Origin: Squalus acanthias
Taxonomy: Eukaryota
Length of the DNA: 64,000 nucleotides
Assembly: GCA_030390025.1 (NCBI GenBank)
Contig: CM059431.1
Span: forward strand, 133,178,001-133,242,000
Reading direction: 5' to 3'
Shown here piece by piece: positions 3,882-63,757 of this stretch. Position 1 is the stretch's first letter; the number at the start of each line of letters is the position of its first letter. The notes under the pieces are model-generated. The model worked only from the letters and a program-made list of their open reading frames with translations. It searched no databases and was not told the origin of the DNA. The position numbers and the translations under genes are program-made.

Positions 3882-4920
3882 TCAGTCTTTTAGCTACTTT
3901 CTTTTGTCTATTTGTGTCGCTGTAGCAGGTGTCCCCAGAGGTGAGCTGAAGCCGTGGTTGTACTGCCCACTTCATTTACTCTGACATAGAGAAAGGCAGA
4001 TTCTGTGCATGTATATTCAAAAGAATGTATGGAGTGATGATTACAAACCTCTGGTTGCAAGTGAAGTTTCTAATGATTGAAAAAAGTGGACCAGATAGTC
4101 CTCTCCTTTCAAATTATTAACTGAATAGTGATACAGTAGAACACCAGAGTTGAAAACATTTTTTTAAATGGTGTAAATTTTAAAAGAACAATGCAAACCA
4201 ACCCCAGATGATCAGTACGAATGGTACAAGACCAACTCTCTTCCATAATCTTGTCCCGAGCATTAAACTTCCACTTCCTCAAAAAGTATCAGAATTATAC
4301 TAACATATGTGGCATAGTTGGGTCATTAATGCTCAAAATCTTAAGGTGGAAAATCAACTGTGCAACTCATATGCATGAACGATATTAGAAAAATGGAGCA
4401 CATGCATTGTGCATTAACCATCAACCGATATTTTGGCGACATTTAATCAATTGTGCACATCACAAGATCATATCTGTATGCTGTACCAGATAATACCCTC
4501 TGGACCCGAGGCAAAAAAAATCAGTTTCAAATTCAGTTGTACAGGTATTAGGACAGGCCTTAATGACCAGGGTTGAGTGTTAAGGAGCATTTAGTACATA
4601 CAAAGTCCTCTCTAGTGTTAGCTTGTCAGTGGTTGTATTTCTTTCAAAATATATATTTTTTAATGTTTTCATCCCTTATTTGCACAGCTGTGTTCTTTGA
4701 CAGCTAGATCAAAGAAATTGTCAGCAAAAAACTGTTTAGCAAGAACAATTCAAAACTGGCGAATTTCAGGATGTTTTGAAGCCAGTTGTGTTATAAAACA
4801 CAGCTTATACTATTGATTTTAAAACAAGTATGAAAAACGCTCCAATTAATCTTCATGTGTAACTTAAATTTGTGAAGGAAATGCAAAACAGACTTACTGA
4901 TTTTTCGTATACAACCTTAC

Positions 4921-5055
4921 CTCTTTGGCTATCTTGGTCAGAGCAGCTGTTTCAGCCTTGCCCAATTGTTGCACCATCTTGTAGAACAGACCATCTTTGT
5001 TCTCAAGAAGAATGTAGGGTTCTTCATACTCTGCAACTCTTCCTGCATCCAGTAC
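4921..5055 (-). CDS. ABCC4: ABCC4-like exon (135 bp), probably the penultimate coding exon
   Basis: Manual translation [45 protein letters not shown]. ctatag acceptor, gtaagg donor, phase 0/0. No stop codon, so the gene continues toward lower coordinates. Confidence 0.93.
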
Positions 5056-14382: not shown

Positions 14383-14616
<234 letters not shown>

Positions 14617-19904: not shown

Positions 19905-22214
19905 CAGAATCATAGAAAAATTACAACACAGGAGGCCATTCAGCCCATCGTGTCCGTGCCGGTCGGAAAAGAGCTAAACCAGCCTAATCCCATCTTCCAG
20001 TACTAGGTCCGTAGCCCTGTAGGTTACGGCTCTTCAAGTGCACATCCAAGTACTTTTTAAATGTGATGAGGGTTTCTGCCTCTACCACCCTTTCGGGCAG
20101 TGAGTTCCAGACCCCCACCAACCTCTGGGTGAAATTTTTTTTCCTCATCTCCCCTCTAATCCTTCTACCAACTACTTTAAATCTATGCCCCCTGGTTCTT
20201 GACCCCTCTGCTAAGGGAAATAGGTCCTTCCTATCCACTCTATCTAGGCCCCTCATAATTTTATACATCTCAATTAAATCTCCCCTCAGCCTCCTCTGTT
20301 CCAAGGAAAACAACCCCAGCCTATCCAAACTTTCCTCATAGCTAAAATTCTCCAGTCCAGGCAACATCCTCGTAAATATCCTCTGCGCACTCTCCAGTGC
20401 AATCACATCCTTCCTGTAATGTGGTGACCAGAACTGCACGCAGTACTCAAGCTGTGGCCTAACTAGTGTTTTATACAGTTCTAGCATAACTTCCCTGCTC
20501 TTATATTCTATGCCTCGGCTAATAAAGGAAAGCATTCCATATGCCTTTTTAACTACTTTATCGACCTGTCCTGCTACCTTTAAGGATCTGTGGACATACA
20601 CTCCAAGGTCCCTCTGTTCCTCCACACCTCTCAGTATCCTCCCATTAATTGTGTATTCCCTTGCCTTGTTGCTCCTCCCCAAATGCATTACCTCACACTT
20701 TTCCGGATTGAATTCCATTTGCCACTTTTCTGCCCAACTGACCAGTTCATCGATATCTTCCTGCAGTCTAAAGCTTTCCTCCTCACTGTCAACCACACGG
20801 CCAATTTTTGTATCATCTGCAAATTTCTTTATCATGCCCCCTACATTTAAGTCTAAATCGTTAATATATACTACAAAAAGTAAGGGACCGAGTACTGAGC
20901 CCTGTAGAGCCCCACTGGAAACAGCCTTCCAGTCGCAAAAACTCCCCTCAACCACTACCCTTTGCTTCCTGCCACTGAGACAATTTTGGATCCAGTTTGC
21001 CACTCTCCCTTGGATCCCATGGGCTTTTACCTTTTTGATCAGCCTGCCATGTGGGACCTTGTCAAAAGCCTTGCTAAAATCCATGTAGACTACATCAAAC
21101 ACACTACCCTCATCGACCCTCCTTGTTGCCTCCTCAAAGAATTCAATCAAGTTAGTCAGATACGACCTTCCCTTAACAAAACCATGCTGACTGTCCTTGA
21201 TTAATCTGTGTCTTTCTAAATGAAGGTTTATACTGTCCCTCAGAATTGATTCCAGTAATTTACCTACCACCGAGGTTAAACTAACTGGCCTGTAATTGCT
21301 TGGTTTATCCCTTCCTCCCTTTTTAAACAATGGTACAACGTTAGCAGTTCTCCAATCCTCTGGCACCACACCTGTAGCCAGGGAGGATTGGAAAATGATG
21401 GTCAGAGCCTCTGCTATTTCCTCACTTGCTTCTTTTAATAGCCTCAAATATATTTCATCTGGCCCTGGCGATTTATCTACTTTCAAGGATGCTAAACCCC
21501 TTAATACTTCCTCTCTTACTATGTTTATCCCGTCCAATATTTCACTATCTTCAACGTCGGCATTGTCCCCCTCTTTTGTGAATACAGCTGCAAAGTATTC
21601 ATTAAGTACCTTACCCACATCCTCCGCCTCCACACATAGATCACCATTTTGGTCCCTGATAGGCCCTACTCTTTCCTTAGTTATCCTCTTGCTCTTTATG
21701 TAATTATAAAAGATCTTTGGGTTTTCTTTGATTCTACTTGCCAGTATTTTTTCATGCCCTCTTTTTGCTTTCCTAATTTCCTTCTTAATTTCACCCTTAC
21801 ACTTTCTATACTCTTCTCGGCTTTCTGCAGTATTGAGCTCACGATATCTGATATAGGCTTCCCTTTTTTGCCTTATCTTACCCTGTATGCACCTGGTCAT
21901 CCAGGGGGCTCTAAATTTGGCAGATCGACCCTTTTTCTTTTTGGGAACATGTTTACCCTGAACTCCATGTATCTCCCTCTTGAATGCCTCCCACTGCTCT
22001 GACACTGATTTACCTTCAAGTAACCGTTTCCAGTCCACTTTTGCTAAATCACTTCTCAACCTAGTAAAATTGGCCTTCCCCCAATTTAGAACCCTTACTC
22101 CTGTTTTTTCTTTGTCCTTATCCATAATTATGCTAAAATTAACTGAATTATGATCACTACCACAAAAATGCTCTCCCACTGATACTCCTTCCACCTGCCC
22201 AGCTTCATTCCCTA
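19905..22214 (-). mobile_element. 5'-truncated CR1-type LINE with uninterrupted RT reading frame
   Basis: ORF 19984..22392 (802 aa) has no stop through the RT (PVSLTS, QHGF, DFSKAFD, QGSVLGP, FADD) to the C-terminus. Candidate 8-bp TSD agacacca at 19897-19904 and 22215-22222. Confidence 0.93.
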
Positions 22215-23529
22215 AGACACCAGGGTTTATTTCTTTACACATAGGATGATCAACAGCTGCAATTGGTTTACAGGAAGAGTAGTTGAGATCAGGACACTGA
22301 CTCATTCCAGAAACATTCAATACTGTAATGGAAATATGATCAGGTTGGTCATTCTCTGGGAGAATGAGATCAAACGAGCATTCTTCACCCAAAACTATCT
22401 TGTGATCTTGTACTGGATGTCATTCAAGGGATCAACTAATTTGTGATGTATTTGCCATCATGTGATTAACAGGATATTACAGTTTCAGTAGTAGGTGAAG
22501 AATTAGTCACTGTGTACGCATATAACTGCATCATCAACCACCGATTCCTACTAATTTTGCCACGTGTTGTGCAACATAATGACTTTGGCCTGTGCAATGT
22601 GTTGAATGATAGACAAACAATGTAATACATTGTTTGTACCTATGTTTTCAAGTGCTTTAAAAGGAAGGCACGTTTATGGGGAATACTTTTTCTTCCAAGT
22701 ATTCCCCTATTTTCTAAAGAAATGTAAGGGTACATTTTGTGAGGCTTGGCTCTGAGCTCTGATTGAAATCAAGAGCGAAGGACGGTGCTCCAATTTTCTA
22801 AGCAGTCATGAATCAGATGTGCTGACCTGTAGCCCTGATTCTCCAATCCATACTCTCATCAAGCAAAGCTCCACACTCTCAAAACGGACCCATAATGTAC
22901 TCACAAGAATATGATTTCACGTTTTTTATAAAAATGTAGAATTTATTACCGGCAACAATTAAAATAGCATCTCCGAGTGGTAACGTAATTTCTTGACCTG
23001 CTGTGCTACAAGAACAATACTCAGTCCGATGTCACAGTCTGTTTACTGTTGAGGCACCATCAGAAATTACCAGTCAGTGACAATCACTGGATTGGCCTAG
23101 TAGGTATGGCGAACCAACTCTGTGCACAATAACATTTACATTTAAAAAAATAAAAAGCTTGAATTGGATTCTTAAGTATATTTTTTTCGCTAAAAAGCAA
23201 TCCTCAACTTTCTTCCCATCACCCCTGTCCTCACTGACCTATATTGGCTCCCAGTCACCCAAAGCTTCCATTATAAAATTCTCATCCTTGGCTGCGATTT
23301 TATCATTGGTGGCGGGTTGGGTGCGGGTCAGGGTCCCGCCTCCGCTTTCAGCCGGTCAGAAATTGAAATGTTACATTAATTGCTCTATTGAATCCCTGCG
23401 TGTGCGCAACCCGGCCCAATTAGTGGTTTCAGGTCTGCTGCTCGCCTCTGCTGACGTCTGTCAGCCAGCTGCATTTAAGGGGCCTATGCAGCCTTGTTTC
23501 ATTCTCATCCTTTTCTGCTGGTTTTCGTG

Positions 23530-25754: not shown

Positions 25755-26962
25755 CTAAGCGAATCTGGCAAAGATTAGTGCATCCCTTGCATCACGGGCA
25801 GCAATGAGCTCGCGTGCTGCTGGAGCTGGCGCATCCGCCTCCGCAAGGTCTTCCTCCTCCTCCTCCTCCTCCTCATCTGAGGAGGCTATGCGCTGAGCCA
25901 CTTGTCCCTCAGGCAGCTGGAAGCCACGATGCTGTGTGATGTTGTGCAGTGCACAGCAGACCACGATGATTCTGGAGACCCTGGCTGCTGAGTACTGTAG
26001 GGCTCCACCTGATCTGTCAAGGCATCTGAATTGCATTTTGAGCAAGCCGATGGTTTGCTCGATGATGGCTCTGGTGGAAACATGGCTGGCATTGTAGCGC
26101 TCCTCTGCTTCGTTTGATGGCCTCCTCAACGGCGTCATTAGCCACGTCTTCAGGGGATAGCCCTTGTCTCCAAGTAGCCATCTGGAAAGTTGGGTTGGCG
26201 GATTGAAGAGCGGAGGCACAGTAGACTGCCACAGGATGAACGAGTCATGGCAACTGCCAGGGTACTTTGCGCAAACATGCATAATGTCCTTCCTGTGGTT
26301 ACACATCAGCTGGACGTTAACGGAGTGGAAGCCCTTGCGTTTGACAAATACAGCTGGGCTGTGATGGGGTGCCCTAATGGCCACATGTGTGCAGTCTACG
26401 ACGTCCTGCACCCTTGGCAAGCCTGCCATCTTTGCAAAGCCAACCGTATGTGCGGTTACACTTGCTTCATCCATGGAGAAGTGGATGTAATTGTGCGCCT
26501 TTGCAAAGAGGGCATCGGTAACCTGCGTGATGCAAGTGTGTGCGGCCGACTGGGAGATGCCGCTGATGAGCCCTGGAAGGAACCTGAAGCAAACAAATTG
26601 AGGGCGGTGGTTACTTTGACAGCCACTGGTAAGGGGTGTCCACCTGCTCCTCTTGGCTCCAGGTGTTGGTGCAGCATTGCGCAGATGTCAGCGACTACCT
26701 CTCGCGAAAGTCTCAGCCTCCTTTGGCACTGCTGCTCAGTCATGTTGAGGAAGCGCATCCTCGGCCTGTAAACCCTGTGTTGGGGGTATCTCCTGCGGCG
26801 ACGTGCAGGCCTGCGCTGATGTCCTCTGCCCTGTGCAGCATCAGGTGGCTGAGGAGGAAGTTGGCGCTCCTGTTGTTGCTGCTGCTGTTGTTCCTGGTTC
26901 TGCTGCTGCTGCTCTTCCTCCGAATCTGAGGACCAGGATGACAGGGTATAAATGGTTCCCAT
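25755..26962 (-). pseudogene. Harbinger (HARBI1-like) DDE transposase with one frameshift near 26565
   Basis: N-terminal part has [35 protein letters not shown]. After the shift, [18 protein letters not shown] leads into ORF 25755..26474 with DCTH, YPGSCHD, GDKGYP and IEQTIGLLK. Confidence 0.9.
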
Positions 26963-27639
26963 GCTGCTGGTAGATATGTCAGTTGAGGACTAGAAGTTAT
27001 ACGCACTCAGTCAATGTGGGGAGAGGGTTTTCTCAGGAGGTCACAGTGGAGATGAATCTCAGCTTCACCACTTACAAGCTCAGTAGACCTGCAAAAAGTG
27101 TTCCAACACCTCAAAAAACAAAGTTCTGTCATCTGTAAGTCAGCCATGTTAGAGCTCTGCTTTTATGCTGGAGTTGCAGCTTTCAAGAAGTCAGGCACTT
27201 GCTGAACCCGGCACAATCAGCTAGTGTGGTTTGGGAACGGCATGGAACACGCAGAAAATGTGCAAAAATCGGAAAACCCTGTTAAAATCGGCTTATCCAG
27301 ACAGTTAACAAGCTGTTAACTGCCTTAAGGGCCTCTCGGTGGCGGGACCAATTGGGACTCCCAGAGCCGGTATTTGGCAAAGTGGCGTAGAGGCAGGTTG
27401 ACGGTGGGATCGCAACCCGCCGTCAATCAAAACGATTTTAACACTTGACCCGTCTCCAAACCCGCCTCTCAGTGCCGATAAAATTGCGGCCCTTGTGTTT
27501 AAATTCTGTGCATCACCCCACTCCCTTTGCCCCACCATAGATTTCCAGATAGAGTAATGGAGGTAAAAACCCTTTTATATCATTTAAGAAACAATTGGAA
27601 GGTACAATGGGTGAGGGAACGGAAAGCTAGGTATCATCA

Positions 27640-29240: not shown

Positions 29241-29284
29241 TTTCGACTCTCTGCTACCGGTGTAACCTAGCATCCTGCTTGCTT

Positions 29285-30045
29285 GATGCAACACCTGCCC
29301 TTTCACCTCCTCCCTTCCCACCGTCTAGGGCCCCAAACACTCCTTCCAGGTGAAACAGCAATATACTTGTACTTCTTTCAATTTAGGATACTGTATTTGC
29401 TGCTCAGATGCGGTCTCCTCTACATTGGGGAGACCAAACGTAGATTGGGTGACCGCTTTGCGGAACACCTCCATTCAGTCGCAAGCGGGACCCTTAGTTT
29501 CTGGTCGCCTGTCACTTTAATTTCATGCTCCACTCTGAACTCGGCCTCCTACACTGTTCCAATGAAGCTCAACATAAGCTCGAGGACCAGCACCTTATCT
29601 TTCGATTAGGCACTTTACAGCCTTCCGGACTCAATATTGAGTTCAACAATTTCAGATCATAACCTCTGCCCCCATTTTGTCAGACGGCAGCTATTGATGA
29701 TTCTGCTATTCCCATTTATACCTGCTTTAGACCCATCTTTTGTTTCTTTACTTGTCCCATTACCACCCCCTTTTGCCTTGCACCATCATCCCTTTTGTCA
29801 TTCAATCTCTCCTGCTTTCCACCCTATCACAGACCTTCCCCTTTGTTCTTTCCTCCCTCCCCCCATTCCCTGCCTCTGTACTTGCTTAAAACTTGTTACA
29901 TAACATTTTCCAGTTCTGATGAAAGGTCATCAACCTGAAACATTAACTGTTTCTCTCTCCGCAAATGCTGCCTGACCTGCTGAGTATTTCCAGCATTTTC
30001 GGTTTTTATTTCAGATTTCCAGAATCCGCAATATTTTGCTTTTGT
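29285..30045 (+). mobile_element. Penelope-like retroelement 3' fragment (GIY-YIG remnant and terminal region), 13-bp TSD
   Basis: RCGLLYIGETKRRLGDRFAEHL is the GIY-YIG core. atcctgcttgctt flanks both sides (29272-29284, 30046-30058). Hammerhead motif near the 3' end. Confidence 0.85.
29911..29949 (+). ncRNA. Minimal type I hammerhead ribozyme motif (helix III mutated)
   Basis: cagtt-CTGATGA-a-aggt(catca)acct-GAAA-catt-aactg. Helix I is cagtt/aactg and helix II aggt/acct. It has ACAT instead of the ACGT palindrome of the 58939 copy. Confidence 0.7.
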
Positions 30046-31940
30046 ATCCTGCTTGCTTTGCTTATTGCTGCCTCACAAGTGTTTGGATATGGTAAATGAT
30101 GAGCCAACTAACTAGGTTTCTTTCAACTTCCCCATGGAACATTTTATCCCACTCACGGAGCACTTGTGCCTCCTATCTTAATTTCCAATGTGCAGAATGT
30201 TGCACTTATCTGTATTGAACTTCATTTGCCACTAATTAGCCCACATACAAATCCTGTTGAGGTTTCTTTGTAGAATCTTGGCTGGCTCATCTGAATCCAG
30301 ATTTTTGCCCGCTGGCCCAGTGGCATCTTCAAATTTGACTACCTTGGACTATGAATCTAAGACATATATGTATATATACACACACCAGGATTATGAGAGC
30401 TCCCTGGGGATTGCTTTCAGGCTGCGTAATGTCAACCTTCAGCTGAGCAGTTATTCTAATTTTATTTTAAATTCCAACTAAGACACTGTATATATACATT
30501 GTATAAAATGACAACATGAGGGAATTAAATCCCAAACAAAAACTTTGGCCTTATGTGATCTTTCTCATTTACAGACTTCAATCCTGCATTTCATGATCTA
30601 ATTTGAATCCTTTGATAAGCTTTCAACTTTTATTAAAAATAATCAGGCTACCCAATAGATGTGTTAATAACAGAAACATTTAACGGAGCCATAAAGACTA
30701 AAATTTCCCAGGTTTGATTCCTGGCCTGTGTTGAATGAGCGGATCTCAGCCTTGATGATGGTAGGGACATCAATGTTGACCACAGCACCTGTGGGCTAGG
30801 GAAGGGAAAATAATTCCTTACTTTGGTTGCTATGCAGTGATCTCTATTGGAAATGCTTGTGTGTGCTTATCGGATAAAGATGGAATCAGGCCTGACAGTA
30901 ATACTCCTGGTTATAGAGCCTGCTCAGACTCACAGTCAAGGCACAGACATGAATAATGGCTGCTTAAACAATGTACTTGGTGCCGAGAGCCAACCAACCC
31001 TCAGCAAAGAATCAATGCCTTCAAGAGATGATAGGAAAAAATGTTGAGATTAAAAAAATAGATTACACCCTCTTTCGAAAGATCTCTTTGGATGTCCTAC
31101 AAAACATTTTATAAGATTTTTATATGGTCCTTTCATATAAAACCATAAGTAAGGCACAGTATATCAGTGTGCTGTAGTGAGGAACTAGTTTACATAGTAT
31201 CTACTCAAATCCAATGTTGTACTAAAGAAAACACATTTGTGATACCCACTGCCAGCTGGTGGAAATGAGTTAAAAGTAAAGTTAGAATAAATTTCATGGA
31301 CAAAATAGAATTTTCCCATCCCCTACTTTCTCAAATTCCTATGACTTTATTATGTGAAGAGGTTACAATTAATCATCTAATCACTCTACTGTTCATCGTA
31401 AGTTATTAAGCTTGAGTTATTAAGCTTATTTACACATCTAGAATGTTACAAGAATTCAAGGCAATACTACATGAAATCCGGATGGACAGTTACGGGCTCC
31501 ATAAATTTCCACTGTTGTGTTGAATGGCACTAGTAGAGTCTTATATGATTTATTCCAACATCTACTCTTTTTTTAAAAAAAGGCTATTAATCCACTCTTG
31601 CATAGGTTAAAAAATACACTGTACTTCTAGACAAGCTTAAATAATGGTAGATTTACAAAGGTGTGGCAGCTGTTTCTGTTCAGTGTGTAGTGCTACATGA
31701 ATGCTAAAATCAAAATATCTATTAGCACAATCCAACTTAAATTACAATACTATACTTTTAAATATGTGCCTCTATGTTCTTGGTTGCTTATGACCAAAAA
31801 AGTTAAATAAGTCATCACATAAAACCTGGTTTGAAGATATCACTGTTGATACACACTCTCATAGCAGCATCTACAGTGCTGTTACAACACCAGTGTAGGA
31901 TCACTTATAGTACTCATTGCACTTGAAATACAAGAAATTA

Positions 31941-32114
<174 letters not shown>

Positions 32115-36544: not shown

Positions 36545-37011
36545 TGGGACCATTCCCACCGCTACCCTGAACCTACTGCCATGGTTTATCTGACAGTTCC
36601 AGAAAGTGATGGGAACAGGAGCAGACGAGAGGGAAAAGGCGTCAAAATGGGGCGGTGACGCCTACTACTGCCTCACTGTCCCAACCTCAATTTCCTTTCC
36701 CCAGCCCCCGCTGCTGCCTGCTCCAACCCCATCCACCACATGCAAATGCTGGAGGGTGAAGGCTTGGGTTCCCAGTCCATTTCCCTCTCATCTGCTCCTG
36801 TTCCCATCACTTCCTGAAATTGTCAGGTAAACCATGGCGCTAGGTCAAGGCTAGCTGTGGGAATGGTCCCACATGTGACAAATGGAGGGATCGGATCCTC
36901 TAGAGACCTCCTTTCATCCGATCGCTTCCCTGATAAAGTCCAGGATGGGATAAAGTCCTGCTCTGACCTTTATAGGGCAGGACTAGGAATGTCCATATGA
37001 TGGTATGCTTC

Positions 37012-39039
37012 TACGAAAGCAAAATACTGCAAATGCTGGAAATCTGAAATAAAAACAGAAAATGCTGGAAATATTAGCAGGTCAGGCAGCATCTGTGGAG
37101 AGAGAAACAGAGATCATAACCTCTGCCCCCATTTTTTCAGATGGCAGCTGTTGATGATTCTGCCATTCCCATTTACACCTCCTCTATACCAATCTTTTGT
37201 TCCTTTACTTGCCCCTATTAACATCTGCTTTTGCCTGGCACCATCATCCCTTTTGTCTTTTAATCTGTGTTGCCCTTCCATCCTATCACAGACCTTCCCT
37301 TTGGTTCTTTCCTCCCCTCCCCCCAGCCCCTGCCTCTGCACTTGTTTCAACCTGTTGTGTCTCTAACTTTTTTCAGATCTGACGAAAAGTCATCGACCTG
37401 AAACATTGGCCGCGATTTTGCCAGCGCTCAGAGGGCGGGTTTGGAGGCGGGTCAGAGGTTAAAGTCGTTTTGATTGACAGTGGGTTCCGCACCCGGTCAT
37501 CCCGCCTCCACACAACCTTCCCAAGTGTCGGGTCCCCGATTTGCAAATGGACCCGACACCTAGCGGCGGGAAACAGATTAAAGGCAATTAACTGCCTATT
37601 AACAGGTACTTGTGAGCAGTTTTCAGGTTTTTTTTTCGATTTTCCAGCTTCTGGGTCGGGTTTTACGACATCCGGACAACACGCCAGGTAAGTGTGGCGT
37701 GTTGAGAGTCTGGTCTGATGTTTGTGAAAAGATGACAGCTGCAGAAGTGGTGTGAAGGATGCCATGTTGCACATGGTGAGTTTCAGAGCAAAGAAAATGT
37801 TGGTTACTGCATTTTTAATACATATACAGATTTCTTTAGCTTACAAGTTTTTAAATCCAACTGTATGTCCAGTGCCACCTCATTGGGAGAACCTCTCTCA
37901 CCAGTGACAGATCGCTTCTGTTATCTCACCTGCAGCTGCCATCTATTCCAGTAACATCGAAGCCAATGAAACAATCAGACCTTGGTCCTCCGAATCCTTC
38001 CACGATCAGCCCCAACACCAACATCACCAACCTTCGCCGCCATCACATGATGCTGCACTGGACACAGGGCATCAGCCCCTGACAAAATTACTGGCCGGGA
38101 GGCCAGCGATGGCATCACCATGGCCAGACTTTCTTCACTTGATGCTGTAAACCCTGGCTGCCACATTATGCGCCAGGTTGACACCATCCCACACCAGCAC
38201 TGTGAAGCATCCCTTTAATGTCCAAGCCATTCCATGCACACTCATCACTATTGCGGGGCGGGGGACAGGGGGGTGGAGTTATGACTGAACAATCACTGGA
38301 ACTCAGGAAGACACTTCTCAAGGTGCGCTCAGATCTGTCCTATAAGGGGCACTTTTTGAAAAAGAGATTTCACTGTATGACAACACATAACCAGAAACTT
38401 CACGTGGACATTGGCTAAACCTCTCAAGTGCCCACCCTTGTGTGTTGTTAGTTAGTATGCTTGCAGTAGGATGAGGGTGAGTGTGAGGGGTGGCTAGTGA
38501 GATGGGCAAGTGATAAAGTAGATAGAGAGGGTTGGGTATAGGTGCAAGGTAAGTTGGTGTCCTGGGGAGGTTTCTTCTGCCCTTGGAAGGGAAGAGAACC
38601 TCCCTGCATGCTGTGACTCCCTCCATAAGCATATGGAGGGAGTCATTGGAGATCCTGGGTGCAAGTTTTCACCGTTGTGCAGTGATTGTCAGTGTTTTCA
38701 GCACCTCAATGCTGTCAAACACTGAAAAATCAACTGTCAAAATAAAATTGTGCATGATCCCTTTAAGGAAACCGGCAGATGACACGTCATCAAATGACAT
38801 CATCAGACCCGCTTCCTGTTAATTGGCCGGTAAGCCCACAGGGCGGGCTTAACAAGGCCAATCAAGGGAAAATCATGTCTGCAGAGCGGAGGCAGCTGGG
38901 GGTGGGACTGGAACCCGGAAACCAGCTGACCCGCCCCCATCCCGACACCGATGAGAAAATCGCGGCCATTAACTCAGTTTCTCTCTCCACAGATGCTGCC
39001 TGACCTGCTGAATATTTCCAGCATTTTCTGTTTTTATTT
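37012..39039 (+). mobile_element. Penelope-like terminal fragment with inverted 5' piece, 16-bp TSD, interrupted by a Harbinger derivative
   Basis: tatgatggtatgcttc at 36996-37011 and 39040-39055. 37016-37112 is an inverted copy of the terminal sequence. 37113-37407 and 38968-39039 match about 29655-30010. Confidence 0.85.
37408..38967 (-). mobile_element. Non-autonomous Harbinger derivative, ATT TSD
   Basis: TIRs GGCCGCGATTTT / AAAATCGCGGCC with att on both flanks. Its left end aligns with the reverse complement of the 27491 end of the full-length element. Confidence 0.9.
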
Positions 39040-39146
39040 TATGATGGTATGCTTCATCTGATGGAGACTCCACACTGTCCGAAGACAAACAGTATAGGTC
39101 AAAGCTAGCATCCAACGTTACACGTGAACCATAGGTGTGAATTCAT

Positions 39147-41981: not shown

Positions 41982-42158
<177 letters not shown>

Positions 42159-44744: not shown

Positions 44745-46887
44745 GCCAACTTTATGTCACAAGCGCAAACTTCAACCCTAGCGCTGAATTCAGTGCTGGG
44801 TCCTAAGCACACCAGGTTAACCCTATTTTAAAATAACATTCCATTTCTACAAAATCTCATCCAAAAATGAAATCCATACAGTTGGGTCCACGGTGAATGT
44901 AGTTTTTGTACGCTGTTAATGTGTACATTGCAGCTGCACACAAGTTCCGTAGTCTGATGTTAGGAGCCAGGTTACCCTGGCGTGCAAGCAGGCTGACAGT
45001 GGCGATGTCTGGACCTCTTAAAGGGACACATACATCGTTCAGGTAAGTTTGGATTTAAAGTTTTGGACTGGGTTTTATTGATTTTATTGAAGTGGTGGCT
45101 TACTGCAATAGACGTGTGAAGTTTTTTAAGTGTGTAGGGAGTGCTGCTGGTCGCTAGAAAGGGCTCGGATGGTAAATGAAGGCCTTTGTGAAGACAGAAT
45201 ACTCAGCAGGTCATGCAACATCCATAGAGAGAAAAACGGAATTTACGTCTCAGGTTGAGATGCTGCCTGACCAGCTGAGTATTTCCAGAATTTTATGCTG
45301 TAATTTCACATTTACATCATCTGCTTGCATAAGAAAGAGGAAGACACAGAAGAGGAGGAATCAGATGGAAGGATGCATCCCAGACAGCCCCTTTGTGGCC
45401 GGGATGGAATCATCCGCCTGCAGTACCAGTGACCACAACCCCAATTACCCTTTCATCATTAGTCCCACACCTTACCTTCCATCTGTTACTGACCATCACA
45501 ATGTCCTCTTGGCCACGATGCTGAAATAAAAGCCATCACAAAACAAACTTTCCAATCCACCTATATACTTCTATCCATCCAATGTGACATCAAGAAATCA
45601 ACTCATCACCCATATGCATTCTCTTAGTGAGTGTCTTGTGTGTGCCTTTGCTTATCCTACTGATGTCACGCAGTGTTACCCCAGTGGCTGCAGCATGGCT
45701 GGTGGAAGGCTGCTGACTTTCAGTGGGGGACACTGCAAATGTCCTTGCTGGTTGACCTTGAGGAGCTGCTGGCTGAGAGTGTCATATCAATCTTCTTCTT
45801 GTTCTTCTTCAGTCTCCTCTCCCTCTTCTTGGTCACCCACTGGCTGCATTTCTTGGGTGTGTGAAATGAGGAAGGCACAAGGGTGGAGTTATGGTGATGG
45901 GAGGGCAGGAAAGCATGAGGTGCATGCCAGAAGGAGGATAACGTAAGAGGATACCAGCATCTTATATCCTTTCAGCCCTGCCGCTGGTCAAGGGCTCAGC
46001 CATGCCCCTGCCAAGAATGGCCAGCACTGTCTCCTCCAAGGGGGGGGGGGGGTGAGGTGAGGCTACGAATGGGAGATGTACCTCGTGATTGGTGCAGATT
46101 ATTGATACGTGAGTGATTGGGGGTGGGGGCCGTGCATTGAGCAGTGTGTAAGGCTAGTGATGCAGCTGGTAGGAGATGGTTTTTGAAGATGCATTCACTG
46201 ATCCTGGCCAGTGGTCTGAGGTCATGAAGCTTCTTTGGGCACTGGAGCCTGGTGGTGGGGATGACACTGCTGGCAGTGACGGCCTCGGTGATGTGGTCCC
46301 ACATCGTTCTTTCTGGAGGGCTTCCTGGCCCCTGTGGGTAGAGGACCTGTCTTGTAGTGTTGACGCCCTGCACAAAGCTGGAGTGCTGCGTGTGAGACCC
46401 TGGGTGCCCCTTCCCTGGCTTGCTGAACCATTTGTGTTAGTGCTGAGGCAGTTTTCCCATTTTTTGAGGTTAGGAAGGGAATTCAGCTTTAGGAGCTGAA
46501 TATTCACATTTGGGACTTCTTTTTAATGTAAAATAATTTTTACAAAAGCTGCAAGGGCTGAAAACTGCATTGTTTCACTTCATTTTAATTTGTATCGCTT
46601 CACTGTGCATGGCCCCTTTAATTCTCAGATCTCTTCATTGCCCACAATTCCGCGCGAGCTCCACAGCCTCGCTTCCAGAGGCTGTGGGAAGCTGCAACGC
46701 CGGACCTGGACAAGAACTTCGCATTCGCCACCAGGATGGCGTTGTGCAGCAGGTAAGCCCTGCGCCAACAATCTCCATCCCCCCAGATGAATTTTGCTCC
46801 GTTAGCGTTGTGGTCATTTTCAGTGGCCGTTAACCCCAGTTGCCGACGACACCGGTAACTTTACTGGCTAAAACGTATTTCTCCCCC
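44745..46887. mobile_element. Heavily decayed, internally deleted Harbinger remnant
   Basis: Myb-like exon on the minus strand at about 46195-46400 (WDHITEAVTASSVIPTTRLQCPKKLHDL, then gtgaat). The intergenic segment 45470-45740 resembles 53280-53560. Right end ATTTCTCCCCC; left boundary uncertain. Confidence 0.6.
45198..45323. mobile_element. Inverted pair of Penelope-like terminal fragments
   Basis: aatactcagcaggtcatgcaacatc ... gatgctgcctgaccagctgagtatt form an inverted repeat of the same tail sequence seen at about 29965-29990. Confidence 0.6.
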
Positions 46888-48575: not shown

Positions 48576-48984
48576 TGTTTACGCTGGTTTAAAAAACATC
48601 AGGCTGGTCCTGTCGACAAAATTGACCACATCCTCAGATCTAATTAATTAGCATGATGAGTTTCCGCTAATTGCACTCATTTGTGGCCCTTCGAAGATAC
48701 TCTTATAGTTAAGCTGCTTTTTTTTGGGTGCAAGGGCACTAATAGACACCTTATAAAAGTTTTTAAATATTAAAAAATGTTTAATTTACTAAGAAACTGA
48801 CTACTGTACACCAACAAAACGAGTAAAAATAGTTCTATATAGCTTTTTAAAAGTCATTTTCAGTTCTTTAAAATCAGGTTACTCACAGGTGCTGAACTAG
48901 ACTCTATTATTAAAAATGCTTATTTTTTGTGATAAATGTATTTCCAGCTGTATTAATAAAACTGCACCAGGTTACTTCTCTTAA

Positions 48985-50140
48985 GGTGCCACACAAGAGG
49001 TTATTAAACAAAATTAGGGCTCATGGGATTGGGGGTAATATACTAGCATGGATTTAGGATTGGTTAACGGACAGAAAACAGAGAGTAGGAATAAACGCGT
49101 CATTTTCGGGTTGGCAGGCTGTAACTAGTGGGGTACCGCAAGGATCATTGCTTGGGCCTCAGATATTCACAATCTATAGCAATGATTTCCATGAGGGGAC
49201 CAAATGTAATATATCCAAGTTTGCTGATGATACAAAGCTAGGTGGGAATGTAAGTTATGAGGAGGATGCAAAGAGGCTTCAAGGGGATATAGACAAGCTA
49301 AGTGAGTGGGCAAGAACATGGCAAATGGAATATAATGTGGAGAAATATGAAGTTATCCACTTTGGTAGGAAATTAGAAAAGCAGAGTATTTTTTAAATGG
49401 TGAGAGATTGGGAAATGTTGGTGTTCAGAGGGACCTGGGTGTCCTTGTACATGAATCACTGAAAGTTAACATGCAGGTACAGCAAGCAATTAGGAAAGCA
49501 AATGGTATGTTGGCCTTTATTACAAGAGAATTTGAGTATACGAGTAAAGACGCCTTACTGCAATTATACAGAGCCCTGGTGAGACCACACCTGGAGTATT
49601 GGGTACAGTTTTGGTCTCCTTACCTAAGGAAGGATATACTTGCCATAGAGGGAGTGCAATGAAGGTTCACCAGACCGGTTCCTGGGATAGGGGGATTGTT
49701 CTATGAGGAGAGACTGAGTAGACTAGGCCGATATTCGCTAGAGTTTAGAAGAATGAGAGGTGATCTCATTGAAACATACAAAATTCTTACCGGGCTTGAC
49801 AGGGTAGATGCAGGGAGGATGTGTCCCCTGGCTGGGGAGTCTGGAACCAGGGGTCACAGTCTCAGAATAAGGGGTCGGCCATTTAGGACTGAGATGAGAA
49901 GAAATTTCTTCACTCAGAGGGTGGTGAATCTTTGATATTCTCTACCCCAGAGGGCTGTGGAGGCTCAGTTGTTGAGTATATTCAAGACAGAGATCGATTT
50001 TTGGATATTAAGGGAATCAAGGGATTTGGGGATAGTTCAGGAAAGTGGAGTTGAGATAGAAGATCAGCCACAATCTTACTGAATGGTGGAGCAGGCTCGA
50101 TGGGCTGAATGGCCTATTCCTGCTCCTGTTTCTTATGTTC
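48985..50140 (+). mobile_element. CR1 RT and 3' end (different subfamily, similar to 58066-59330)
   Basis: KFADDTKLGG, LVRPHLEYWVQFWSP, RRMRGDLIETYK; ends in a tcttatgttctta tail. Confidence 0.85.
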
Positions 50141-50340
50141 TTAAATATCAAGGAATATTTTTAAATGAAAGGAAAAACAAACAATTACATTCTAAACGCT
50201 GCCTGATTGCCCTGGTTCATGTTACGTTTGTGATTAAGCAAATGAGTTTGAGCGGAAACTTGAACCATAACTTCACTTCGGAAAACTAGCGCAATTTGTG
50301 CCCGGTTTGCCGATTGCACCCAAAGCAGAAACTTTACCCC

Positions 50341-52080: not shown

Positions 52081-53214
52081 ATGGGGGCTCTACTGGCAGT
52101 CCCCTTCACGCTCGAGTATCTTCGGGAGAGAGAGTGGAGGCAGCAAAGACGATGAGAAGATGCATACAAAGGGAGGAGGAGGGGGGCCAGGAGGGCTCTT
52201 GACAGGAGGCCTTACCCACCTAGGGTCTTCGAGAGCACTTCTCATATCTATTTAAGCGAGGAGCAGTGTATTAGGAGGCTACACTTCACCAAGGAGGTGG
52301 TCACAGAACTCTGCCACCTCCTGCAACCAGATCTGCAGCCTGACAGCAGGGTGAACACGACTCTCCCAGTGACAGTCAAGGTCACCGTGGCCCTCAATTT
52401 CTTCGCCAGCGGATCCTTCCAGTCTGCAGCAGGAGACAGAGCGAACATCTCCTAGTTCGCTGTCCATCGCTGCATTTGGGAGGTCACTGAGGCTCTCTAC
52501 ACCAGGAGATGTGACTATGTTGTCTTCTCTCTGAGCAGAGAGGAGCAGGACAAGCACGAATGTCGCTTTGCCAGGATAGCGGGCTTTCCCATGGTGCAGG
52601 GCGCCATCGACTGCACCCATGTGGTTTTGCCGGCGCTGTATAACAATCCTGAGATCTTCTATAGCCGCAAAGGCTACCACTCACTTAATGTGCAGTTGGT
52701 AAGTGACCACGCCCAGCGCTTCCTGATAGCCAATGCCCGCTATCCTGGCAGCAGCCATGATGCCTTCATCCCGCGTCAGGCCGGTGTGCCAGTAATCTTC
52801 CAGCTACCACATGAAACTCGAGGGTGGCTGCTTGGAGACAGGAGCTATCCGCTCTACACCTGGATGATGACTCCCCTCCGCAACTCCAACACTCGTATCC
52901 AGCACGCATATAATGAGAGCCACGCTGCCACCAGGAACATCATCGAGCAGACCATCGGGCTGCTGAAGCAACGGTTCCGCTGCCTTGACCACTCGGGAGG
53001 AGCCCTCCAGTACTCGGCTGAGCGGGTGTCCCATTTCGTGGTGGTCTGTTGCATGCTCCACAACTTGGTCATCATGAGGGTGCAGCCCTTGCCAGCAGGT
53101 ATTGTGGGGCCACCTCAGGAGGAGGACGAGGGAGAGGAGGAGGAGGAAAAGGAGCGAGATGAAGAAGAAAAGGAGGCAGGCAGCCAATCCCAATTCCGGA
53201 CGGGCTGTCTGTGA
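52081..53214 (+). pseudogene. Harbinger (HARBI1-like) DDE transposase with in-frame stops
   Basis: Starts MGALLAVPFTLE; stops near 52153 and 52453. Retains AIDCTHV, YPGSSHD, GDRSYP and [16 protein letters not shown] plus an acidic tail. Confidence 0.88.
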
Positions 53215-56820: not shown

Positions 56821-58838
56821 ACTCGGCATATGATCTTTAACAAATACTGTCTTCTAGCTGAAAACTGTACATTGGATGCTAGGATAGTCAGAACAACTAA
56901 AGTAGACACTGATGGGTGAGTGCTTTGATATCAACCATTACATAGCAGTGCCATTCAACTTGCCTGATTATTTTGAAACACTAATAACGTAACATGCAGA
57001 AAAATCCTTATTTTGAAACAAAGGGACAAAGTCTCAAAGATAATTTGAACAAGCCCAACCATTATGTGGATTCAGATCGACTTATCTGTTCAGCAGTATC
57101 TAAAATGTATATGCTCTTGGCCATATAAAATGTGCAAGCATGTGAAATACAAATGGGTATGAGCTAAAAGATTTTAGTGGCCATCATCAGTCACTGAATA
57201 TAGATAGTTATCAAACCACCGAAAGATTTGTTCAAATTATAAGTTATCAAATAATCATCTTAGCTATCTTTCCAACTGATGGAATACTTCTCCAATAGAA
57301 CATCACACCCTTTTAAAAACCTCAGAACATTAGGGAAAGTTCTTTTTCGCCCAGCTTGGTTTCAGGACTGTATATCTAACATGAACACTTTACTTTAAAC
57401 TTCTGACAAAATAGTTTGTGTGCTTTACAGCACCAGAATTAAGCAGGTCTATTCAGTTGATCAAACCTAAAGACCATAAGTTTCTTGAAACTGAAATCAA
57501 ACAACAAACTGACACACCCCATCTCATTCTGTGCTCGTTTATCCCTGAAATATTTAGTGAAGTAAAGATCAACCAATCAGACCTCTAAATACTTAATGAT
57601 TAACTAAAGGAAGGTCCAGCCAGGACAATAGATGTTTTTACAGCATGATAAGACTATACTTGCTCTACATTAGTACAGAAACAAACCATATTTTCAAAAT
57701 TTAGGCATGGTCACAAGCAAGTAATTGCCACTCTCCTATGAATCATACAATAGTGGTATGAGCTTCTTTCCCATTTAACTGTGATGTACCTTGCCGTCAG
57801 AGAATATGTGCCTATATGATCGTACAAGTACAAATTTAAATTTTAATAGTAATTTCTAGGTAACAGCTCAATTTCTTGACAAGACATGCATAACAGATCT
57901 ATTAAACAAACAACTATACAAATTCCAGGGAGGGAGGCATAAAGAGAAGTGAAATTAAACTTATCCAGAGCATTTACTGAACACAAGTCTTCCTTTATAT
58001 ACAAGGGAAACCTTACCTGCCAACCCCTGACACAAGGAAACCGAAACAGCCAAAATCAACTTGTTCATAAGAACATATGAAATAGGAGCAGGAGAAGGCC
58101 ATTCGGCCCCTCGAGCCTGCTCCGCCATCCAATAAGATCATGGCTGATCTTCTACCTCAACTCCACTTTCCTGCACTATCCCCATATCCCTTGATTCCCT
58201 TAATGTCCAAAGATCTATCGATCTCTGTCTTGAATATACTCAACGACTGAGCCTCCACAGCCGTCTGGGGTAGAGAATTCCAAAGATTCACCACCCTCCG
58301 AGTGAAGAAATTTCTCCTCATCTCAGTCCTAAATGGTTAAACCCTTAACCCCTGGTTCTAGACTCCCCAGCCAGGGGAAACATCTTCCCTGCATCTACCC
58401 TGTCAAGCCCTGTAAGAATTTTGTATGTTTCAATGAGATCACCTCTCATTCTTCTAAACTCCAGAGAATATAGGCCTAGTCTACTCAATCTCTCCTCATA
58501 GGACAATCCCCCCATCCCAGGAATCAGTCTGGTGAACCTTCATTGAGCTCCCTCTATGGCAAGTATATCCTTCCTTAGGTAAGGAGACCAAAACTGTACA
58601 CAATACTCCAGGTGTGGTCTCACTAGGGCCCTATATAATTGCAGTAAGGCGTCTTTACTCTTATACTCAAATCCTCTTGTAATAAAGGCCAACATACCAT
58701 TTGCTTTCCTAATTGCTTGCTGTACCTGCATGTTAACTTTCAGTGATTCATGTACAAGGACACCCAGGTCCCTCTGAACACTAACAATTCCCAATCTCTC
58801 ACCATTTAAAAAATACTCTGCTTTTTATGAGCCCTAAT

Positions 58839-58974
58839 ACAATAGCAAAATACTGTGGATGCTGGAAATCAGAAATAAGAACAGAAAATGCTGGAAACAC
58901 TCAGCAGGTCAGGCAGTATCTATGGAGAGAGAAACAGAGTTAACGTTTCAGGTCGATGACCCTTCGTCAGAACC
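58839..58974 (-). mobile_element. 136-bp Penelope-derived unit (hammerhead plus tail), 12-bp TSD
   Basis: atgagccctaat at 58827-58838 and 58975-58986; the body is the reverse complement of the region 29912-30045. Confidence 0.85.
58939..58973 (-). ncRNA. Minimal type I hammerhead ribozyme motif, core intact
   Basis: Minus strand gtt-CTGACGA-a-gggtc(atc)gacct-GAAA-CG-TT-aac. Both conserved boxes, helix II, loopless palindromic helix III (ACGT), GUU cleavage triplet and a short helix I gtt/aac are present. Confidence 0.78.
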
Positions 58975-60229
58975 ATGAGCCCTAATTTTATTTAATAACC
59001 TCTTGTGTGGCACCTTATCGAATGCCTTCTAAAAATCTAAATACACCACATCCACTGGTTCCCCCATATCTATTCTGCTAGTTACAACCTAAAAAAACGG
59101 TAACAGATTCGTCAAACATGATTTCCCTTTCATAAATCCGGGTTGACTCTGCCCAATCCTATTATTATTTTCTAAGTGCCCTGTTACCACGTCTTTAATA
59201 GATTCTAGCATTTTCCCTACTACTGATGTCAGGCTAACTGGTCTATAGTTCCCCGTTTTCTCTCTCCCTCCTTTCTTAAATAGTGGGGTTACATTTGCTA
59301 CCTTCCAATCCGTGGGACCGTTCTAGAATCATAATCCTCACAACATTGAAAATTAAAAGTAACTTTAGACAAAATAGCATTCAGACATGGGTCAGACAAT
59401 ACAAAAAAATGATTCCTATCTAAGTTGTGATTATACTAAGGTATGGTGTCTTAGTTCATCCAGTGGAGTTTCCTGCACTAATCTCTGAAAGCAGCATTTT
59501 TTAAAAATGGGATCAGATTTGCAAAATGTGGAATTCACCTCAAATTGGTTTCTAAGACCAAAATCCTAAATCAACTGTTCACCAGCAGCTGTTGGGAGAG
59601 GAAGACATTGTACATGGACAATGGAAAGAACTTAAGTCTATGTAAAATCCTCTTTTAAATCCAAAAGGTCATGGACTCCAGTGAGTAGCACCATTGTGTA
59701 CAACTGAAGCACAGAGAAAGTGCAGAAACAAAAGGAGCCTGCATTAGGTTTAAACACTGGTGCCTGCAGTAACATTCCTGCATCATAACTAGGGAGTGGG
59801 AAAATTTACTGTCACTTGAGTCTGAAAATATTGCAGATTATAAAATGTTTTATTGTTCCACACACTTCATCAACATTAGAAATGTATCCTAAATCATAAT
59901 ATGTGGAAAACATTCATTTCTCTCATCTCTCTTCCATTTATAGCTTTTAGCAAAACTTTAAAAATGTCTGCCTGACTACCATCAGCAATGCAGGGAGATG
60001 ATTAGGACCTCCCACATCAAAACAAAATGCATATGTGTGTTCTACAACACAGTTTACCTTCCCAACATCCACACAGTCGTATTTTCCAGCTAGATACACA
60101 GGACAGCTATCAGAAACTGGAACCGTGGCTGAATTTACCCCTCCCTAATCTAGGAACATGGAGCCCAATGCTGCTCGGTATTAGTTAAGTTAACTTAGCA
60201 GAGTGCAGAGATCAAACACAGGACCGCCC

Positions 60230-63523: not shown

Positions 63524-63757
<234 letters not shown>

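Follow-up and report, generated by a model that had tools for sequence, protein, structure and literature searches.

Minimal hammerhead ribozymes have been described in metazoan Penelope-like elements (PLEs), including the fish Neptune, Poseidon, and Xena elements, where those found solo on truncated copies are reported to be the majority (Cervera and De la Pena 2014, PMC4209133). As described there, the motifs combine a 4-bp helix I with a palindromic 15.2–16.2 segment in place of a real helix III, carry an unpaired base separating position 9 from position 10.1, and occur as single dispersed copies related to a PLE end. Truncated insertions with a hammerhead reach thousands of copies in other vertebrates, and the motifs were found not to cleave as monomers and to cleave little as dimers (PMC4209133). 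Sharks are not known to be among the hosts that this account names for the set.

Two further bodies of work bear on the elements themselves. In the classification of Craig et al. (2021, PMC8557442), PLE endonucleases are defined by cysteines between GIY and YIG, and an extra linker finger marks Neptune and Nematis, not Penelope or Poseidon. The Neptune elements of that study show heavy 5′ truncation, inverted truncated copies, an optional tail of 30–40 bp, and a hammerhead behind the open reading frame (ORF). PAc, a Poseidon-type PLE of Anolis carolinensis (Frangieh et al. 2024, PMC11167929), prefers ATT as its cut motif and starts reverse transcription at two points that bound the tail; uncleaved RNA is its main template, cleavage is not needed for insertion, and its hammerhead cleaved solely with added protein. 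Animal non-LTR retrozymes (Cervera and De la Pena 2020, PMC7229834; Li et al. 2026 bioRxiv) are likewise short, noncoding, and PLE-related, with a type I hammerhead. They are tandem, with a hammerhead in each unit, and yield cleaved or circular monomers, and their monomers also occur dispersed.

We analyzed a 64-kb stretch of Squalus acanthias DNA (hereafter the window), in which a 136-bp unit at 58,839–58,974 contains a hammerhead motif and a tail. The unit most likely belongs with the solo minimal hammerheads of truncated PLEs, a known kind as set out in PMC4209133: it shares their short helix I, their palindrome, and their extra unpaired nucleotide, and like them it stands alone, dispersed, with a relation to the end of a PLE. 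It differs from them in a helix II of 5 bp, against 7–8 bp in the schistosome motifs, and in a G.U at 10.1–11.1 (A-U in its own family) where the described motifs have a conserved G-C. The family in the window resembles the endonuclease-bearing (EN+) Neptune elements of PMC8557442 in a C-terminal GIY-YIG domain with two cysteines and an upstream CxxC linker remnant, as well as in its truncation, inverted copy, optional tail, and hammerhead position; it has no reverse transcriptase (RT) domain in the window, and its clade is read from linker and endonuclease alone. With PAc (PMC11167929) it shares two 3′ start points bounding a tail and an ATT-rich target, and by analogy may share an uncleaved template; the linker motif places it in a different clade, and its hammerhead is known from sequence. 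Unlike the retrozymes described in PMC7229834 and by Li et al. (2026), the focal unit is single and ends away from the cleavage site.

Target duplication and host LINE

The unit is bracketed by a 12-bp direct repeat, ATGAGCCCTAAT, at 58,827–58,838 and 58,975–58,986 (spacing 136 bp). This bears out the repeat proposed in the initial annotation: the match is a perfect 12-mer and lies directly at both junctions. Among 3000 random position pairs with the same spacing and the same loose spans, seven had an exact match of at least 12. A chance repeat was rejected.

The insertion lies in a minus-strand LINE, which we take to be CR1-like. Its left part (58,068–58,825) holds a reverse transcriptase frame and is 91.6% identical to a paralog at 49,377–50,143, and its right part (58,987–59,322) gives an RVT_1 match (E 7.5e-6 for 59,092–59,322). 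Measured against the paralog (48,982–50,143, 92% identical), the host LINE lacks 352 bp at 58,825–58,827, the RT catalytic region among them; the gap lies at the left edge of the duplication, directly before its left copy. The loss at the left repeat means that the insertion was not clean, and the deletion probably arose within the repair event of the insertion or just after it. It lies on the priming side of the insert, where simple target-primed insertion does not predict one; we found no description of PLE target-site deletions of this kind in the openly accessible literature that we searched.

Both junctions share bases between element and target. On the left, the last two nucleotides of the duplication copy (AT) are common to the 3′ terminus of the element, and the target reads ATT at this 3′ junction. 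On the right, the CC at 58,973–58,974 also matches the host LINE, which would extend the right copy to 58,973–58,986, and 58,973 is a 1-nt microhomology between element and host. In the family, CCAG precedes the two helix I Us, which makes 58,973 the microhomology and 58,974 most simply a host base; on the right, the match to the host extends over the CC at 58,973–58,974. Because both bases match the host LINE in the 92%-identical paralog, the outer G of helix I (58,974) is probably host DNA, and the next G (58,973) possibly too. The unit had been annotated as starting at helix I: the helix I arm does lie at the unit's edge, but with its outer G, and possibly its next G, derived from the host, the coincidence would be partly accidental.

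A longer copy of the same family

The element-derived sequence (58,837–58,973, minus strand) comprises the 3′-terminal 135–137 nt of a PLE. Over 137 columns it shares 86.9% identity with 29,913–30,047, the last 135 bp of a longer copy 29 kb away. Of the 136-bp unit, ∼100 nt are tail, lying behind the hammerhead on the minus strand. They include an optional 3′ extension of ∼35 nt (58,837–58,872, minus strand), which is also present in the copies ending at 30,047 and 37,012 and absent from those ending at 39,039 and 42,465.

The longer copy (29,285–30,047, 764 bp, plus strand) lies between 13-bp duplications at 29,272–29,284 and 30,046–30,058. It consists of a linker CxxC, the frameshifted C terminus of a GIY-YIG endonuclease (to 29,662) with two cysteines inside the motif, ∼250 bp of 3′ UTR, the hammerhead (core 29,916), and the tail. 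The endonuclease remnant in this copy thus supports the link to Penelope-like elements, first made from the hammerhead. Both the focal and the longer copy have a 12–13-bp duplication beginning with the AT common to the same 3′ terminus, in agreement with the ATT preference of the anole PLE.

Domain searches were consistent with this reading of the remnant. Its 30-aa GIY-YIG piece matched Pfam at E 0.058, below cutoff, and a 54-aa C-terminal piece of the longer copy found 53 relatives. Of 12 relatives scanned, four gave GIY-YIG matches (E 0.0009–0.008, all below the curated cutoff) and eight gave none, several being chimeric gene models; two of the relatives with such matches align back over the whole remnant (E 6.6e-30 and 8.6e-20). 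The endonuclease that defines EN+ PLEs is thus represented by the remnant in the longer copy together with these relatives. As to the CX2-5CxxC linker finger, the CxxC part stands at the start of the longer copy and the full motif in relative P0032. A word-based protein search returned one uninformative match, P0002, without a Pfam family, and two degenerate-pattern scans of metagenome contigs gave zero loci each. No RT domain of the family lies within the window, in which the longest copy begins in the linker. Linker and endonuclease together suggest a Neptune-type PLE (Nematis shares the linker). The openly accessible literature that we searched on shark PLEs does not describe the family; it may be cataloged already in Repbase, Dfam, or subscription journals.

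A minimal hammerhead on the sense strand of ABCC4

A minimal type I hammerhead motif occupies 58,938–58,974 on the minus strand. Its parts are the helix I 5′ arm (58,974–58,971), CUGACGA (58,970–58,964), an unpaired A (58,963), helix II (58,962–58,950), GAAA (58,949–58,946), a palindromic ACGU (58,946–58,943), a GUU triplet ending at 58,942, and the helix I 3′ arm (58,941–58,938), with predicted cleavage between 58,942 and 58,941. No core nucleotide is missing; helix I is 4 bp long, and helix II is 5 bp long with a closing G.U. This manual anatomy confirms the minimal hammerhead with palindromic helix III previously annotated on this strand. The motif has the CUGANGA, GAAA, and NUH elements, helices I and II, a palindromic 15.2–16.2 segment, and the extra nucleotide at 9/10.1. 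The conserved G10.1-C11.1 pair is absent: the focal copy has G.U, and the two window copies that keep the position, as well as the loose-end consensus from public sequencing runs, have A-U. Rfam gave no match at the gathering threshold across the whole window and, at E ≤ 10, five weak, unrelated matches with no hammerhead family among them. As Rfam does not recognize the motif, the hammerhead call rests on manual anatomy.

Predictions of secondary structure did not favor the hammerhead fold. The monomer in hammerhead form was predicted at −6.0 kcal/mol, 3.8 above the minimum free energy (MFE) of −9.8, and the double hammerhead of a dimer at −8.7 versus a cofold MFE of −25.2 kcal/mol. Predicted pairing probabilities were 0.02–0.18 for helix I and 0.15–0.70 for helix II, and single-strand folding compared with shuffles gave no signal for the focal motif (z −0.49, −0.34, and +0.41). 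No second intact core that could serve as a dimer partner in cis lies on the focal strand in the 64-kb window. The hammerhead is probably a passenger from the terminal repeat of the element and, as a single monomer within an intron, probably has little activity or none.

The unit was said to lie in the sense orientation of ABCC4, and it does. An ABCC4-like intron of ∼21.5 kb (42,114–63,565, minus strand) holds it in sense; the flanking exons (∼63,566–63,721 and 42,024–42,113) are both on the minus strand, are bounded by AG and GT, and have ABCC4 as their best match in PDB (E 8.5e-25 and E 2.5e-15). Consecutive ABCC4-like exons of the second nucleotide-binding domain lie in five minus-strand frames (4,897–5,055, 14,383–14,616, 31,941–32,114, 41,982–42,158, and 63,524–63,757) separated by introns of 10–21 kb. 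Two of these frames are the ones confirmed against PDB; those at ∼32.0, 14.5, and 5.0 kb we take by eye to be ABCC-like.

Related copies in the window and in public runs

Eight related segments occur in five loci of the window. Their seven countable starts, measured from core C3, are −631, −262, −3 (the focal unit), +9, +14, +31, and +49; all differ. A start at +25 (38,967) was left out of the count because an unrelated insertion caused it. Five of the seven cluster over 52 nt (−3 to +49), at the ribozyme or just behind it; of these five, two mark the inner ends of inverted pieces. The uneven pattern could also come from a bias to short copies. On the 3′ side there are three ends at positions 0 to −2, a pair at −34 and −37, and two from old copies at −19 and −60. 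Those of the first two sets agree with the optional 30–40-bp PLE tail, whose spacing is attributed to two start points of reverse transcription (PMC11167929; tail also PMC8557442).

One locus is a composite (36,996–39,055, mixed strands) with a 16-bp duplication. An inverted tail (37,012–37,110, minus strand) lies inside the duplication and is followed by a direct piece of 3′ UTR and hammerhead (37,111–37,407). At the cleavage triplet this piece is broken by 1.56 kb of unrelated inserted sequence, beyond which the remainder of the tail stands (38,967–39,039). Inverted tails within the duplication have been described for rotifer PLEs (PMC3846280). Together, the copies in the window show the 5′ truncation, inverted truncated copy, optional tail, and variable duplications (12, 13, and 16 bp) by which PLE copies are recognized. 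The copies at 42.4 kb and 45.2 kb have 7-bp repeats, which we did not take for duplications because matches of at least 7 occurred in 248 of 3000 random pairs.

Two of these loci have features of their own. The insertion in the composite copy is a 1.56-kb element (37,408–38,966) with inverted ends GGCCGCGATTTT, placed exactly at the cleavage triplet and flanked by a 3–4-bp ATT/CATT repeat. At 45,198–45,324 lies an old fold-back PLE tail with a degenerate core; its diverged halves, placed back to back, share 77% and 82% identity with the long copy.

Public sequencing data were searched with the 781-bp long copy. Two runs yielded 39,633 (X3) and 70,189 (X10) aligned contigs, with 29 of 29 bins covered, body included; the best-matching runs share 0.69 of words, no RNA run is among those listed, and their species may not be that of the window. 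Peak depth was 5.4 million over the tail versus 2.2 million over the body in X3 (∼2.4-fold) and 3.6 versus 2.0 million in X10 (∼1.8-fold), figures for depth and not for copy number. The body is thus abundant too, not just the tail, and the higher tail depth leaves room for a short subfamily. At the variable sites in its range, among the 40 of 310 rows listed, the focal unit carries the alternative letter at six out of six; among the rows listed, that letter is the majority at six out of six sites in X3 and five out of six in X10. Loose ends behind 30,045 were AT-rich. The 14 of 2118 loose-end rows listed include none at helix I; a 2-bp gap in the reference at 29,946 breaks alignments just behind the ribozyme and could hide a helix I peak. 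The raw-read runs X21 and X22 were uninformative, with just 33 and one reads on the long copy. One X10 contig (depth 148) joins the 3′ terminus at 30,047 back to 29,955, just behind the cleavage site, and may represent a tandem tail unit.

Origin of the 5′ end

The focal unit is very probably a severely 5′-truncated, dead-on-arrival insertion of an abundant Neptune-type PLE, and presumably without function. The initial annotation had left the choice between extreme 5′ truncation and a tiny ribozyme retroposon. The longer copy and the differing starts speak for truncation, and the discrete retroposon found no positive support in the window.

From the junctions we infer the following steps, in this order. 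The PLE endonuclease would have nicked the host LINE at an ATT site, and the nicked 3′ end, ending in AT, would have primed reverse transcription at the outer of the two 3′ start points of the element. Synthesis of cDNA would then have crossed the tail and an uncleaved hammerhead and stopped 3 nt past the catalytic core, after ∼135 nt. The cDNA may have been joined to the target through the 1-nt G microhomology, and a staggered second nick would account for a 12–14-bp duplication. The 352-bp host deletion abutting the left copy would belong to the same repair event or have followed shortly after. The unit retains 33 nt upstream of the cleavage site, so the ribozyme did not create its 5′ end; a cleavage-defined 5′ end was accordingly rejected, with sequence upstream of the GUU site kept. 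A tandem retrozyme was also rejected, the locus being a single unit between duplications with ends 33 nt upstream and ∼104 nt downstream of the site.

Truncation need not have been random. Compatible with it, and a possibility we hold tentatively, is that the hammerhead makes reverse transcription stall or switch template, so that 5′ ends concentrate in a zone along the front edge of the motif. The cluster of five out of seven starts at −3 to +49 fits this, as does the fact that both inverted pieces turn inside that zone; against it, no two starts coincide, the hammerhead helices are weakly populated in predictions, the 14 of 2118 loose-end rows listed hold none at helix I, and in any retroelement prone to truncation most copies are short. 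A fixed 5′ end at helix I would instead make the unit a discrete non-autonomous mini-retroposon of hammerhead and tail (∼135 nt), copied in trans by PLE protein. We consider this improbable even though the unit has its own target duplication, an intact core, and the family's common letter at six out of six variable sites among the rows listed, tail depth exceeds body depth, and the terminal repeats of rotifer PLEs are reported to suffice in cis for mobilization (PMC3846280). A start at helix I is common to none of the six other window segments, the outer base of helix I matches the host, and nothing in the unit defines a 5′ end: a cleaved RNA would start at 58,941, 33 nt inside. Nor is the unit tandem, unlike non-LTR retrozymes. 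Least probable is a retrozyme-type monomer, copied from an RNA excised by two hammerheads and perhaps circularized. Its type I hammerhead with palindromic helix III, the derivation of animal retrozymes from PLE terminal repeats (bioRxiv 10.64898/2026.07.22.740005), and the X10 contig with the joint from 30,047 to 29,955 would suit such an origin. A doubly cleaved unit, however, should have the cleavage site at both of its ends or else form a tandem, whereas this one starts 33 nt upstream of the site and ends at the standard PLE 3′ terminus, common to the ORF-bearing copy; these end positions largely refute it.

A programmed 5′ end could also come from RNA processing. Directly before the 2 nt preceding the core, two longer copies carry a splice-acceptor-like context (29,895–29,913 and 37,358–37,376, plus strand; both of the copies that keep upstream sequence) that is pyrimidine-rich, AG-free for 40 nt, and ends in CAG. 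The unambiguous element sequence of the focal unit begins on the first base after the position of that AG, and in Drosophila virilis Penelope the 3′ end of an intron is likewise reported to map to the 5′ end of helix I (PMC4209133). Shark-type PLEs might then shed mini-copies, hammerhead first, from spliced or otherwise processed RNA, and these would make up a discrete family of non-autonomous elements. Copies that lie in sense within introns, as the focal one does, could pair in trans with the abundant transcripts of PLEs and so cleave the pre-mRNA of the host. We regard this as very doubtful: pyrimidines make up just 11 of 17 and 13 of 17 positions, such contexts occur once per ∼1,100 window positions, and none of the 15 of 569 joints listed ends at the acceptor-like AG. 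Both carriers of the AG run antisense to ABCC4, and it is absent from all three pieces on the sense strand, although these numbers are tiny. A separate question concerns the order of events at the target. The host deletion may have come before the insertion, leaving a plain 12-bp duplication and two helix I Gs that both belong to the insert, one of them substituted or untemplated. The perfect 12-mer at both junctions suits this sequence of events, and the two readings differ by one base (58,974); yet the deletion breakpoint would have to meet the edge of the duplication by chance, and the CC at 58,973–58,974 continues both the host match and the host reading frame. An older deletion is therefore unlikely.

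Read as a truncated insertion, the unit has little import as it stands, being one more PLE fragment with a passenger hammerhead. It is a tidy example of PLE insertion mechanics because the target has a close paralog in which the sequence before insertion can be read, revealing an ATT-type nick, AT and G microhomologies, and the adjacent 352-bp loss. Were 5′ ends to peak at helix I or at the candidate acceptor, PLE copying would be connected with the ribozyme or with splicing, and the unit would matter more.

Other elements in the window

The window holds further mobile elements. A CR1-like LINE ORF2 has an 811-codon open stretch at 19,984–22,419 (minus strand), with relatives at 8.6–11.9, 47.5–51.6, and 55.8–56.8 kb. 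Two minus-strand frames at 25,755–26,989 and 52,456–53,214, with neighboring Myb-like frames, are presumably Harbinger-like transposases.
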